Part shown: positions 18,001 through 24,000 of the stretch, in pieces
Layout of the letters: the number at the start of each line of letters is the position of its first letter
Position numbering within the stretch: the stretch's first letter is position 1
Source: a virus
Taxonomy: Duplodnaviria; Heunggongvirae; Uroviricota; Caudoviricetes
Virus record (IMG/VR): IMGVR_UViG_3300045988_152494
Coordinates: 1-39,821 of that record
Length of the DNA: 39,821 nucleotides
Strand: one strand, 5' to 3'
Position numbers: made by a program

Positions 18001-21000
18001 TTGAATTTGGATTACTGCCAGTGCGTACAACATTGGCAAAATATCAGATTTATATGAAATATATGCTTTTTAATCCAGTTTTGCAATATTTTGCTGTGAA
18101 AATGTCGCCTTTTGTTTTGAACGTGTTCTCGTTAGAAGCAATAAAGCTTCGCTATCAAGCTGTAGAAAAATGTGCTTCATTGCAACCCAGCGTTCAGTGA
18201 ATGTCTCAGACCAGTTTTTTGATGTCACTCCCACCAGTGACGCCAGTTCCTGGTATTCATAAGCCTCACGCCCTGCCAGTTCGCTCTTCACATCCTGTGC
18301 CGCCAGCCAGATCAACTTCTTCAGGCGTTCCAGTGTCTTACCTGCAATTTTTCTGGTACCCAACAGAGTCTTAAACTCGCTCCATGCCCACTGCGTTATG
18401 GCAACCTGATGCTCCCAGCGAATATTTTCACTGTAACTCCACAGCAACCATGCTTTCTGATGCTCATCGAGAGACAGAACAGCGCGGCGCCATGAAGAGG
18501 TTGAAAACTCGACCGGACTGATCAGGGCGACAGATGAACCTTTTGCGTACGACTGTTTACCGGAAATCGGCGGATTATCCAGCATAATAATCTTGCCAGT
18601 TACCTCATCCAGAATGCGTCGCTTCTTTCGTTTGTATGTACCAGTATCAAATTGTGCATGCTCCAGCCAGGCTTCAAGCTGGCCTTTCGTTGCTCCGCTC
18701 AAATCAGCGGTAGCCACAATGAGTTGCTCGCGGACATACTGTAAATATTGGGTATTCATGCGGCAGCTCCTTTCAGTGTTTTGGCGTAATTCTTCAGTAT
18801 CCGGTAATCGGTCAAAACAGAACCAGGAAAACGATATAAGCGCAGGCGCACCCAGCGGCGGCGAAGAAGTTCTGCCATATAAAACTCAAACATCATTCAT
18901 TCCCCATTTCGGTGATGGTCAGTTCCAGCCTCCCACCTTTGGTAACAGGCATCTTCACAACGCGGTAATCAACGACCTGAGCATCATCCAGCCAGAAACC
19001 TGCTTTAGTGAGTGCGTCAAAAGCGGCTTTTTGCAGATTATCCAGGTCACGGCGACGGCGATCCGGCATGTGGCACTCAATGCGGATTTTCACAGGCATA
19101 GCCAGGCCGATATCCAGCATTGCGTTTTTAATGATTCGGGCGACGTTATCGCGGTATGCCTGCCCCTCTGCGCTGACGTGCGTGCGCCCGCGATTATGGC
19201 GGTAATAGCGATTATTGCTCGGAGGCCAGGGTAGTGTGATGTGGTAAGTATTCACGCCTTAATTACCCTCTCTTTCAGCCAGATAACCTGCGTTCTCGCC
19301 ATACCTTCCAGCGCGCATTCTTTTGCATATCCAGCGTCAACAAAATGCGTGCGGCGGTCGATTTCGTCGTGGCAGGCAGAACATGCAATGGTGGCAATCA
19401 GGTCTGGCGGTTTGGTACCGGTGCCGCACAATCCAGTCAGCCGGATATGTGCCAGTACAGACGTTTCAGGGTTGCCATTACATACGCCAGGGATTCTTAC
19501 CTTGCATTCCCGACTACGCGCTGCTTTTCTCAAATCAGCCATGATTCCTCCTTGCTGCCAGTCGCAACCATTTTTTATCAACCAGGCTGGCGGTATATCC
19601 GAGCAGTGTTGGTATTTCGGAAGGCTTCAGCTCCGGTTTACGCTTACGACGATTTGGTACTCTGTAGATGTGTCCGTTCATGACACGAATAAGCGGTGTA
19701 GCCATTACGCCTCCTGCTTGTCGCGCAGCAGCTGGAACTCGCAGCTCTGCGGAATAGTCAGGTTGCAGCCAATATTCATCGCCCAGGCTTCAACCTTACA
19801 CAGGAAGACATACATCTCTCCGGTATCAAGATCGGAGGTATGGCGTAACGACTGGATAGTAGTGATTTCGCCGGTTACGACATCAACCAGGTCCTTGGTT
19901 TCATAACCGAGGTATGTGTGTTTGAGAGCATCTTTTACCCATGCTGCGGTAGCGAACGATTTCCCCCTGCTGATGAGGTATTCACTGATTTCGCTGTACC
20001 ACATGTGGCTGAGTGCATTCTGGGAAAGACTGCGTCTCTCTCGCCACGGTTTAAGCACCATGCGAAAGCATTTGCCTTCCTCCAGATAAGGCTGGATCTG
20101 CTGGCCGATAGCGGTGAAGTTACCACGATGCAATTTGATGCCATCTTGTAGGAGGTTCACGATTCACCTCCGCAGAGGTCAAACGCTGGATGCAAAAAAT
20201 CGCAGGTACATTTCTGCATCTGTGAAGGGAGAAGAGAGTTTGGATTGTATGTGCGCATAAACGTCCCCGTTTAGCGCAGAAGTCACCGGAGTTGTTCAGG
20301 CTCCGGTGACTTAATTATGACAAGTTGATTATGGAAAATCAAAGCTTGTCATCAGAACAACGAATAATTTAAAAACTCTATAATTTCTAAGATTTTTTCA
20401 CTTATCGCTGGAATGAAACGTGAAGCAAAATAGAGCCCCAAAAAACCCAATATTGAGTACGAAACCGTGATAGCGACTCTGTATTTTTTCTCGCCTCGTT
20501 TCACTCTCTCCCACTCAGTTTTAAGAACACTGGAACTATATTCAAAATACTGTCTGACCACATCTGTAATGTTAGATGAGCGATCCATTTTTAAAATGTA
20601 ATCCTCAATGATTTTCAAAAGCTGAGACTCTTCATTAGTTAAGTTTTTACTGGATAACCTAAGCTTCACTTTTGCGGAAAGAAAATAAATTTTTCCAGCC
20701 ACCTCAGGGAGCTTCTCAGGCGGAGTCGTGCGTAATTGTAAAAAGTTCTCCATCAATTCAGCTAACTCTTCCCTTAAACCATCTATCCACGCTTGCCGAA
20801 ACTCAGATGTTTTATTCTCCTTAGTGATAACAAGCCCCACTCCAGCTGCAGCTGCGGCAATAATTGCGGCGACAACTGAGGCTATCCCTGCATCCATGAA
20901 TTACCCCTCAAAACAATATGAATATGAATATGATTCGATGCCTTCAGCAATTGAAAACTAAAACTCCCTGTAATGTCACATCTGCCCATGAATGTGTTTT

Positions 21001-24000
21001 CTTCATACAGCTTTGCTGCAATATCTAAATCAGACATTAGTCAGCGGTTCTCCCGCGCCAGCGTTTGTTACTTTCTGATATTCTTTCTGTATCAACGGAC
21101 TCAACCTCACCTTCTGAAAACCTAACTGCATTAGCTTTAGCCATTGCCTTCCTAGCATCTTCTTCCGCCTGGCTAAAATGCACCTTCTTTCTTCCCTTGA
21201 AACTACCAACGCGAATTTTGGAAGAGGCCTGCGTCTTGTACTTGCTAATCCGTAATTGTGCCGCCAAATGGGCTTTTGCCTCGGTGCGGTTCGCTGGCTT
21301 CTTCTTTACTAATTCAAGGTCTAAATGGTACTGCTGCTCAGCTCTTAGTTTCTTCGGTTTCATAATATCACTCTCAAACAAAGTCCATTTATCATAGAAT
21401 AAAAGCCCTCTAAGAGCTTTGATTTGTATCTATGCTAATTCCCGTCAATTTGTTCTTCATTTTACCTCCAGCTGTTGTGCTGCTGCAGTGGCATTCAATA
21501 GTTTTCCTTCTAAGCATCCTACAAAATCGGTGACGAGTCATGACCAGTTCACGTAGTGCAATGAAATTACTGCAATCTATTATGACGCAAATGCGTCAAT
21601 ACTCGAATCAACTGATCATCCTGCCACGACTGAAATCTCAAATAGGCCGTTTCTCAAGTAAGAGATTTTGAATGCATTATTGGCTACTGAAATAAAAAAC
21701 CCAGCGCCAACTGGGTTCATATGAAATTTTTTTGTCATTTCCAATTGCAAGACTGTGAAATTTTTTCCACAACCTTATCAATCTCAGACAAGTCAAACTC
21801 AACTACTTGCATAGTTGATCCATAAGGTTCAAACCCAAAAATAGCTTTTTTATGCTTAGCCAAGGTCTTTATAAATTGTATTGGTTGTGGAGCAAATGCA
21901 GAATCACCGCCTTCCCCACCTCCCCAAACACTCTTGACCGGCTTTCCGCCATCTAACCGCACTGTAATTCTTGGGTTGTCCGACCCCATATAATCATTGA
22001 ATGATAAATAGGCATCTGTTTTGTTATCACTACAACGCAACACCAGTGAAGTTGCACGATCAGTACCTGCTTTGTTATATGAATCTGGTGATAAATTAAG
22101 AGCCACAAAGTCAGTCTGGTCAGTCATTTTATTTATCTCAGACTTTGTTATCCACGGCCCTAACTTCTCTACACCAGCATTTGCTGTAAACGAGGCACTT
22201 ATGACAAAGGCTAAAATAAATTTTCTCATAACCCTATCTCCTTGGATTTAAAGAACTAAATATTATCAAGTCTCTTGCCACTAGAAAACCCACTTTATTT
22301 CCAAACTCTGACGGCATTCCTGAAAATCCGCTTCATACTCACTTGCCCCGCCCTATCATCCTGAGTAGCTAACCGTTAAACAAACGTTCGCCAGACCTTA
22401 CCATCAATGACCAGGATTCCTGCCCGCGCCATTTTTGCCGCAGCCTGATTTATGCTGGTTAATGTCACACCTGTTGTCGCAGCAACGTCCGGCGCACAGA
22501 AGCTCTTGTGCGTCTCCAGATAATGAATAATTGCCTCTTTGCCCGTCATACAGTTGCTCCTTTCAGTCCGAACTTCGCTTTGATTTCTGCGATCTTCGCC
22601 AGAGCCTGTGCACGATTTAGAGGTCTACCGCCCATGACAGGAAGTTGTTTTACTGGTTCAGGGATCGCCTCACCACGGTTAATTCTCGCAGTCATATGGA
22701 CAAGCTCATCTGCGGCCTTACGGCGTAATTCCGCATCAGTAAGCGCATTGGCCCGCATGTTCTGATACAGGTTGGTAACCAGCCAGTAGTGCGCGTTTGA
22801 TTTCCACGGATAAGACTCCGCATCCGGATACAGGCCTCGCTTCCGGCAATACTCGTAAACCATATCAACCAGCTCGCTGACGTTTGGCAGTCCGGCGATA
22901 ACGGATGCTTCTTCCCGGCACCATGCAACAAACTGCCCGGGTGATGGCAGAAATGGTCGATTCTGCCGACGGGCTACGCGCATTCCTGCGTTAACCTGTT
23001 CCATCGTGGTGATCCCGTTTTCCCGGAAAGCCAGAACCCACTGGCGGCGGATTTCGTTCAGTTCGTTCTGGTCACGGTTAGCCAGGCTCGCCGGGAAAGT
23101 TGCCAGTAACTGGCTGAACACACCGTTGATGATCTGCGCTACCTGCTGTACCTGCGGCTTTTCGTCGTACTGTTCCGGCATGTTGTTGGCGATCCGACGC
23201 ATCTGCTCACGGTCAAAGTTAACCATCTGTGCGGCGATGTTTTTCATAGATCCACCCCGTAAATCCAGTCAGTGTTTGTCAGGTCGAGTTTTGGTTTGCC
23301 GGCTGTCACGCCAGCCTGTTGCTTGTTTCGGTTGATTTCGAGCTGGGTCCACTTGTCGCGGAGTTTGGCCGGACTCAGCACGTTACCGGACCAGAAGTTG
23401 TCCTGGCATGCCCAGCGGAACAGTACACACATGTCGCGGTGGTTACGTCCGTCACGTTCACGCATCAGGCGGATATCGTTAGCCCACCCAGCAAAATTCG
23501 GTTTTCTGGCTGATGGTGCGATAGTCTTCACCATGTCAAACATCCACTCTGCGGCGGTCAGGTCTTCTGCTGTCCCCCACTTGCTGCCGCTCTGAATTGC
23601 AGCATCCGGTTTCACCACAGGAAGATCGTTTTCTGGCTGGTCAGAGGATTCGCCAGAATTCTCGGACGAAAAAGGTTTTATATTGTCTTTTGTTAGTTTG
23701 TCTTTTGTGTTTACCTGATTCGGGTAAACGCCTTTACCTGATTTGGGTAAACTTTTCTTACCTGATTCAGGTAAATTTACCTCTTTCAGGTAAACTTTAT
23801 TTTTCTTACCTGATTCGGGTAATGTTGACCATTCACTGATCACATTATTAATGCCGATATTCCGCCCGCTCTGAATAAAAATCCCACGCTTTACCAGAAC
23901 ACTTTTTGCAGCAGAACACTTGTGCGGCAATATCCCGGTCAACTCGGAAAGTTGCTCGTTGCTCACCCAATCCAGTTTTTTATTAAAGCCATATGTTTTG

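Follow-up and report, generated by a model that had tools for sequence, protein, structure and literature searches.

A low-GC block at the ren-nin junction of a lambdoid Escherichia coli prophage appears to be a recombination mosaic of separately travelling genes

The window analyzed here, the whole 39,821-nucleotide stretch of the virus record IMGVR_UViG_3300045988_152494, represents a lambdoid (lambda-like) Escherichia coli prophage with a nin region of the phage-82/DLP12 type, in which a block of low guanine-plus-cytosine (GC) content holding three minus-strand genes, here termed g1, g2 and g3, lies between ren and the nin genes. An initial annotation had treated this block as a single cargo insert and had suggested that its genes might form one superinfection-exclusion or abortive-infection module. 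Comparison with related prophages indicates that the block is, with high probability, a recombination mosaic of three independently travelling single-gene modules rather than one system. Overall, we lean toward the view that the region is a mosaic moron zone, in which g1 and g3 are proposed to serve as separate envelope exclusion proteins.

The distribution of the three genes argues for a mosaic origin. The whole block is present in 15 of 5,426 complete E. coli genomes, always at 99.4% identity or higher, and prophages in the chromosomes of strains AR_0061, MB15, SW07096 and E2 are 100% identical to the 2.2-kb query. The g1 module by itself (21585..22280) is found in 84 of the 5,426 genomes, g2-like DNA recurs at 82-83% identity in other prophages, beside theta and DUF551 genes, and g3 DNA is confined within E. 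coli to the 15 genomes that carry the trio. Among IMG/VR stretches, 109 encode g1 relatives and 123 encode g3 relatives; 69 of 80 g1-anchored loci lack g2 and g3, and 68 of 80 g3-anchored loci lack g1 and g2. When conserved co-occurrence and gene order were sought across divergent elements, the trio appeared only in loci at least 98% identical to the window, 11 in all within IMG/VR. Because each gene occurs without the others outside this one near-identical lineage (at least 98% amino acid identity for each), the trio does not behave as one module; the comparison of related prophages that the initial annotation had itself proposed thus yielded genes that essentially never co-occur beyond it.

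A single system, composed for example of a periplasmic sensor (g1), a basic cytoplasmic partner (g2) and a membrane effector (g3), would account for several local features of the block: the genes are adjacent and co-oriented, g3 is accompanied by g1 and g2 in every E. coli genome that has it (15 of 15), and the g2 stop, a short open reading frame (ORF) termed orf51 and the g3 start overlap one another. A further case comes from IMG/VR contig 2924484564_000001 (locus L064, 5613..6429), the sole instance outside the E. coli lineage in which g2-like and g3-like sequences co-occur; here an ORF lying about 300 nt upstream of a divergent g3 homologue (39% identity) matches the conserved C-terminal motif of g2 only (54% over residues 70-108). 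Against this interpretation, joint occurrence of the full trio is limited to the one E. coli lineage (about 99% identical in DNA), g1 and g3 are each found without their two companions at most loci, g1 and g2 are set apart by an intrinsic terminator, and the junction between g2 and g3 contains a truncated theta gene. Moreover, g3 has no conserved neighbor either in 54 divergent viral clusters of IMG/VR or in 80 species genomes, where 150 immediate neighbors fall into 106 Pfam families, none of which was seen more than three times. We therefore regard a one-system explanation as very improbable.

The borders between the modules can be located by pairwise blastn alignment, which puts the end of module A at 21585, the start and end of module B at 21497 and approximately 20999, and the start of the nin leader at 20347. 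Strain 3PT (locus L002) and phage IdasGreatGrand (locus L003) carry the same segment of P, ren pseudogene and g1 as the window, followed by entirely different small genes; homology to module A ends at 21585 in the former and at 21657 in the latter. An 87-bp linker (21498..21584) connects module A to module B. At the other end of module B, DNA homology to loci with g2 and theta stops at 20999-21000, within orf51 (20882..21037, minus strand), which overlaps both the g2 stop (TAATG) and the start of g3 and has no annotation from the Prokaryotic Genome Annotation Pipeline (PGAP). The orf51 product begins MSDLDIAAK, as compared with MSDWNIAAK or MSKYNIAAK in theta homologues, and diverges after about 13 codons (20999..21037), from which point the theta stub is fused to unrelated sequence. 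Judged from these alignments, orf51 is a recombination scar at the g2/g3 joint. The spacers between the genes had been described as long and AT-rich; the one between g2 and g3 is not empty, as it holds this 51-codon ORF with its holE-like theta start. We propose that illegitimate or homologous recombination would have assembled the accessory zone from three circulating single-gene modules, of which module A would comprise P, the ren pseudogene, g1 and a terminator, module B would consist of g2, and module C would be a stand-alone g3.

The setting of the block is consistent with such an assembly. On the minus strand the gene order runs cI-like repressor, cro-like gene, YdaT, O-like gene, P, ren, low-GC block, orf33, ybcN, ninE, ybcO, rusA, ylcG, Q and lysis genes. 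GC content drops to 0.35-0.47 between approximately 20300 and 22400, versus 0.50-0.56 in both flanks, and averages 0.399 over 20344-22280, versus 0.51-0.54 in the flanks of that segment and 0.49 for the whole window, in agreement with the drop originally reported. On the ren side, the first 55 codons are conserved, as had been noted, whereas the gene does not simply end there: beyond an in-frame stop at codon 58, a decayed and frameshifted homology runs on to 22281, and three-frame translation after the stop recovers the remnants RLATQDDRAGQV and FQECRQS. In the 100%-identical AR_0061 record, PGAP likewise annotates the interval equivalent to 22281..22549 (minus strand) as 'protein ren, frameshifted; internal stop'. 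Given these remnants, the foreign DNA, first thought to start from 22375, begins near 22280.

On the nin side, conserved sequence had been taken to resume at 20160, whereas phage-82-like DNA is present already from 20347. Positions 20343..19600 are 94.6% identical to the phage 82 record X92588 and recur in some 2,800 E. coli genomes, so that 20161..20347 (minus strand) is a conserved nin leader outside the insert. This leader contains a promoter-like site identified by consensus scan (TTGATT-17-CATAAT with a TG element, 20342..20314), orf33 (20157..20258) and a 12-bp inverted repeat (20292..20320), features that X92588 annotates as well. The repeat folds into a hairpin of -19.8 kcal/mol (z -5.65) without a U tract, and in the phage 82 record it is marked, behind a putative promoter, as a site where a regulator may bind. 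It had been described as a terminator; that it ends g3 transcription as part of the insert is an idea that we reject because the hairpin is part of the conserved phage-82 leader. The first conserved nin gene downstream of the block is ybcN (19705..20160, minus strand; orf151 of phage 82), which scores 274.8 bits against NCBIfam PRK09741 and is named 'DNA base-flipping protein YbcN' by PGAP.

From these comparisons the acquired DNA can be assigned to about 20348..22280. Searches for direct and inverted repeats returned short chance repeats only, with no flanking repeats, transposon ends or att-like ends of the block, and an Rfam scan over 19600-23300 gave no match. The ren-nin junction is hypervariable and has many alternative contents in other prophages; the statement that the insert stands in place of the leftward portion of the nin region is unsupported. 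The low GC content, together with presence/absence polymorphism among otherwise near-identical prophages, does bear out the original view that the block is accessory cargo gained by horizontal transfer at a variable hotspot. A prophage of Enterobacter kobei shows continuous homology of 74% from a g3 homologue through the leader into ybcN, and the association of g3 with the nin region is therefore older than the trio. A literature search on a named ren-ninB defense hotspot, on phage IdasGreatGrand and on the protein accession found nothing relevant.

All three predicted genes are present as first described, with products of 164 (g1), 108 (g2, counted from ATG) and 181 (g3) amino acids. Compared with homologues of 60-85% identity, Nei-Gojobori ratios of nonsynonymous to synonymous substitution rates (dN/dS) are 0.05-0.12 for g1, g2 and g3, the proportion of nonsynonymous differences (pN) being far below that of synonymous ones (pS); the dN/dS figures are rough because dS is near saturation. 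From this substitution pattern, g1, g2 and g3 are evidently real genes under purifying selection.

The first gene, g1 (21735..22229, minus strand), encodes a predicted secreted periplasmic protein that we classify as a short, divergent member of the VasI/TagO family (PF11319) with an IalB-like fold. Its N-terminus reads as a Sec signal peptide (MRK, a hydrophobic core and a cleavage site TANA|G) that lacks a lipobox, and two cysteines are conserved without exception among 25 homologues from Escherichia, Salmonella, Enterobacter, Citrobacter, Pantoea, Serratia and Klebsiella. The predicted structure can be superposed on that of a solved protein with the IalB/VasI-like fold. The best explanation of these features is a periplasmic protein with a VasI/IalB-class fold, exported by Sec and probably disulfide-bonded. 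The gene has a Shine-Dalgarno sequence (AAGGAG, 22238..22243) and, by eye, a candidate extended -10 element (TGATAATAT, 22260..22268, minus strand), where a consensus scan called no promoter on account of a poor -35. Its unit is closed by an intrinsic terminator (21687..21718, minus strand) located 17 nt past the g1 stop, in which UUUUUUAUUU (U6AU3) comes after a GC-rich stem of 9 bp (21718..21697) capped by a 4-nt loop (-12.2 kcal/mol, z -2.18); this terminator, also recognized in the initial annotation, is real.

PGAP names the g1 protein (WP_001224618.1) 'type VI secretion system-associated protein TagO', and the same name is attached to relatives in Citrobacter, Pantoea and Klebsiella and in some phage records. 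One might therefore suppose that g1 is a type VI secretion system (T6SS) accessory or counter-T6SS factor, which would modulate a host T6SS or shield the lysogen from attack. The protein does score 26.7 bits against Pfam VasI, just above the gathering threshold of 26.5 (its relatives P0147 and P0142 reach 31-33 bits), its predicted periplasmic location is the site where many T6SS effectors act, and hhalign aligns the g1 family colinearly, with both cysteines matched, to ECs_0222, the TagO of T6SS-2 in E. coli Sakai that is encoded beside clpV, albeit weakly (E 0.0019, probability 14%). The Pfam match, however, covers only the C-terminal part of the profile (positions 78-184 of 184), whereas ECs_0222 scores 179.3 bits over positions 2-184, and against the NCBIfam equivalog TIGR03360 g1 reaches 14.4 bits (E 0.026) for a cutoff of 124.2. 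Thus, g1 resembles VasI/TagO proteins such as V. cholerae VCA0118 and ECs_0222 in its gathering score, C-terminal half, cysteines and predicted compartment, and departs from them in being about 80 residues shorter, in scoring 27 rather than 179 bits, in falling outside the equivalog and in being always phage-borne: g1 and its relatives lie in a prophage in every context examined and never in a T6SS cluster. The role of VasI/TagO in the T6SS itself is, in addition, unknown (PMC13584744). We consider a T6SS function for g1 improbable.

The IalB resemblance raises the alternative that g1 is a virulence or host-interaction factor, comparable to the invasion-associated IalB of Bartonella, that acts through lysogenic conversion. 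This resemblance is one of fold only, at 9% identity; strains carrying g1 or the trio, isolated from wastewater, frogs, crayfish, poultry, deer and humans, show no pathotype pattern, and no link to secretion systems or adhesins was noticed. A virulence role appears scarcely credible.

A functional parallel for g1 may be offered by SDIC4B of Serratia, a protein described as having a VasI fold that on its own lowers the plating of several phages 10-200-fold and is the one VasI-fold protein outside the T6SS for which function has been measured (bioRxiv 10.1101/2024.01.28.577318). We translated the SDIC4B sequence from plasmid pGM251 in the supplement of that preprint; the protein carries a signal peptide and has no Pfam VasI match. 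A sequence relationship between g1 and SDIC4B was rejected (hhalign probability 0.4%, E 0.16), which leaves an analogy confined to fold class and cellular location. Both are small signal-peptide proteins that are encoded outside T6SS clusters, in mobile or defense DNA of Enterobacteria, and that act, or in the case of g1 would act, alone; SDIC4B differs in being tied to BrxR and chromosomal islands, whereas g1 resides in prophages. No gene with a BrxR name or a WYL Pfam domain occurs among the annotated neighbors of g1 and its relatives, where no dedicated BrxR search was made.

The positions occupied by g1-type genes are those of classic prophage cargo. They are found at no fewer than three prophage sites: the lambdoid ren-nin junction, a tail-gene site in Klebsiella and Serratia, and an int-proximal site in P2-like phages. 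At the second of these, g1 relatives of 55-60% identity lie between the tail chaperone and tape measure genes, which is the site of HK97 gene 15, a prototype moron and superinfection-exclusion gene (PMC3594210). Morons were defined by Juhala et al. 2000 and HK97 gp15 was characterized by Cumby et al. 2012, both as reviewed in PMC3594210. Set against the moron features given there, the block resembles lambdoid morons in its GC content, lower than that of the surroundings, and in its presence or absence between related phages, and g1 resembles them further as a single gene with its own terminator, a feature seen for g1 only; downstream of g2 and of g3 none was detected. The block also differs from known lambdoid morons in being unrelated in sequence to gp15/YebO.

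Several observations concern the g1 module and other VasI-domain proteins in phages. In strain X14-3 (NZ_CP084055.1), IS1A interrupts the block within the g1 module. The g1 module of strain SZQ1 (NZ_CP174001.1) is carried by a record of 43,337 bp that is classified as a plasmid and may be the genome of a lambdoid phage, either extrachromosomal or mis-binned. In strain 3PT (L002 3365..3830), the segment of P, ren pseudogene and g1 belongs to a heavily deleted prophage remnant and is fused to a truncated LysR gene beside dsdXA; g1 thus persists in degraded prophages. Two P2-like phages, Escherichia phage 500465-2 (L113 4235..5465) and Xuanwuvirus P88_4B11 (L115 4202..5432), encode a protein of 297 aa that contains the entire VasI domain (89.6 bits) and matches IalB weakly, preceded by a 110-aa zinc-ribbon protein; the pair lies between ogr/D and int in L115 and at the prophage end, followed by host genes, in L113. 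One RefSeq record names the 297-aa protein TagO.

The second gene, g2 (21037..21363, minus strand), encodes a basic protein (isoelectric point 10.3, 27 lysine plus arginine residues) with no known domain. It belongs to phrog_14068 (E 3.5e-64), as g1 does to phrog_1848, both of category 'unknown function'; the early statement that none of the three proteins can be placed in a family thus no longer applies to g1 and g2, and holds for g3 in the sense that its family, while large, is unnamed. The g2 family is restricted to Enterobacteriaceae and shows a dN/dS of 0.05-0.11. Its conserved N-terminal motif (a helix) and C-terminal motif (ANAIRFSEGxVESVDTxR...NKRWRGRTAD) flank a variable lysine/arginine-rich linker, and 25 alignment columns are invariant. 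Relatives occur in the nin regions of Citrobacter, Enterobacter, Klebsiella, Raoultella and E. coli prophages, in which the g2 stop overlaps the start of a DNA_pol3_theta gene (L024-L029 and L196). Phage homologues of the DNA polymerase III theta subunit (HolE/Hot-like, PF06440) are thus translationally coupled to g2 relatives, whereas the window retains a 13-codon stub; it looks as though g2 was carried into the block and its theta partner was lost. With this linkage in mind, g2 would be a replication-linked early gene, and it may, tentatively, be an early-operon accessory tied to replication or to the host replisome rather than a lysogenic-conversion gene.

The third gene, g3 (20352..20897, minus strand), encodes a predicted inner-membrane protein with an N-out orientation, in which a first transmembrane (TM) helix, a cytoplasmic four-helix bundle, a second TM helix and a short C-terminal tail follow one another. 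In an AlphaFold2 (AF2) model with a predicted local distance difference test (pLDDT) score of 91.4, TM1 runs into the bundle and the bundle into TM2. Two near-invariant motifs adjoin the hydrophobic helices, namely TKE(N/Q)KTSEFRQAWIDGLR past TM1 (also rendered as TKEnKTSEFRQAWIdgLR) and LKxEWxRVKxGE ahead of TM2. Across 100 family members, the lysine plus arginine count is 0.2 in the N-terminal tail, 2.8 after TM1, 4.7 before TM2 and 1.3 in the C-terminal tail; by the positive-inside rule, the bundle is therefore predicted to be cytoplasmic and the invariant charged motifs to sit at the cytoplasmic face of the membrane. A periplasmic sensor resembling NarQ (5iji) or QseE (9m08) was considered and rejected, as the predicted topology of g3 is inverted relative to these modules; g3 also lacks an output domain and shares only 10-12% identity with them, a generic helical-bundle similarity. 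Three tandem CATATT copies (catattcatattcatatt) lie at about 20915..20932 (minus strand), 20-35 nt upstream of the g3 start and ahead of its Shine-Dalgarno sequence; they might serve as a -10-like element or form a tract prone to slippage.

Homologues of g3 are numerous. A word-indexed search returned 334, and the family comprises 4,872 cluster representatives (about 4,900 clusters at 50% identity), 783 of them at E 1e-30 or better, with lengths of 175-300 aa and members in Proteobacteria, Acidobacteria, Nitrospira and Verrucomicrobia. The window protein has no significant Pfam, NCBIfam or PADLOC match, precomputed Pfam domains are absent among the homologues listed, and searching the PDB by sequence with all three proteins and with the g3 profile produced chance matches only. 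The family consensus scores 20.3-22.2 bits against Bestrophin-like PF14023 (formerly DUF4239), below the gathering threshold of 32; the alignment is colinear and covers almost the full length (residues 21-187 versus profile positions 32-188 of 232), and a further sub-threshold match is to Bestrophin_2 (PF25539). Of 136 members, 13 match PF14023 at E <0.1 (best 3.8e-6). The window protein itself scores 12.8 bits in a different register, and bestrophins are not among the top solved-structure matches. The bestrophin domain has four TM helices, as opposed to two in g3. Membership of g3 in a Bestrophin-like family may be considered an unproven lead.

In Klebsiella and Enterobacter lambdoid prophages, g3 relatives occupy the same nin slot directly upstream of ybcN; other contexts include a prophage remnant in Pantoea and a position beside an integrase in Rhodoferax. 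With no conserved neighbor, g3 would appear to work alone, and its distribution is patchy. The one context found that is clearly a defense island is in Shewanella waksmanii (L016/L129), where the g3 homologue (L016 6001..6639) has two unannotated proteins of roughly 580 aa on one side and a Gabija-like pair, an OLD/TOPRIM ATPase and a UvrD helicase, on the other; SocA_Panacea is encoded close by. Three independent short Enterobacter-like metagenome contigs (L007-L009) encode a 270-aa Trypsin_2 serine protease 63 nt upstream of a g3 homologue of 72% identity.

Several inner-membrane proteins are known to exclude superinfecting phages, T4 Imm being one example. Like P22 SieA and HK97 gp15, g3 is small, prophage-encoded, partnerless and located in an accessory slot (PMC10883804); it differs from both in showing no family relation to them in Pfam, PHROGs or PADLOC and in belonging to a family that is far broader and often non-prophage. 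By analogy with these proteins, g3 might act at the inner membrane, while g1, by analogy with the signal-peptide-bearing SDIC4B, might act in the periplasm; each would be expressed from the prophage and would alone exclude superinfecting phages at the envelope. Alternatively, g3 could be a membrane-permeabilizing abortive-infection effector. The anti-phage roles are inferred by analogy, and we regard each as less likely than not, that of g3 marginally more so.

Several results weigh against an exclusion role for these proteins. For g1, g2 and g3, PADLOC (PADLOC-DB 2.0) returned chance-level matches only (E 0.013 or worse), a tblastn search of g3 against 50,697 sequenced phage records gave no match, and g1 has neither detectable sequence similarity to SDIC4B nor any BrxR-like neighbor that we noticed. 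Among the 150 immediate g3 neighbors, GajA and integrases occur twice each, the others being mostly unremarkable and heterogeneous; enrichment of g3 in defense islands is not demonstrated. Finally, all three genes lie on the strand of the early right operon, between P and Q, and the consensus scan called no promoter upstream of any of them, so that their expression may be lytic only.

These last two features are also what commends the main rival explanation, in which the genes serve the phage lytic cycle and, as is the case for the nin genes, are transcribed from pR by way of N-dependent antitermination. According to this scheme, g2, with theta in its relatives, would tune the host replisome, and g3 would be needed for some lytic step. 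Such a role fits the tight coupling of g2 and a theta homologue that many prophages show amid their replication and nin genes, and likewise the retention by g3 relatives of the slot before ybcN across genera. In opposition, g1 has a canonical terminator and a GC content far below that of the operon, both typical of morons (PMC3594210), and it is not obvious what an exported periplasmic protein would do in lambdoid lytic development; most related prophages do without g1 and g3, both of which are thus dispensable, and g3 relatives are also found outside prophages. We judge a lytic function for the genes to be rather unlikely, and continue to favor a mosaic moron zone with g1 and g3 as separate candidate exclusion proteins.

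Elsewhere in the window, a 535-aa ORF (25967..27574, plus strand), named 'SIR2 family protein' by PGAP in near-identical prophages, lies directly downstream of the cI-like repressor gene (25132..25860), a position that we take to be equivalent to the rexAB slot of lambda. This ORF is likely an anti-phage defense gene. The AR_0061 prophage, which shares the block studied here, has a different gene at this position.

Taken together, these findings show the block to be real but ordinary prophage mosaicism, in which the trio is unsupported as a module and the TagO assignment of g1 is nominal. A bolder reading, which we think distinctly unlikely, is that g3 defines a new widespread family of stand-alone two-TM proteins, perhaps minimal bestrophin-like channels, that prophages deploy for exclusion or abortive infection, with g1 representing a second class of envelope anti-phage factors of VasI/TagO fold that are misnamed as T6SS proteins in thousands of genomes. 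At a more practical level, g1 clears the Pfam VasI threshold by 0.2 bits, and counting such prophage cargo as T6SS genes would mislead. Adjacency in a low-GC block need not signify a system, as the joints, including the truncated theta gene, show stepwise assembly. The most interesting piece is g3, a large conserved membrane family outside the reach of Pfam, NCBIfam and PADLOC, which, because it recurs in prophage accessory slots, is a simple single-gene candidate for phage-exclusion screens.

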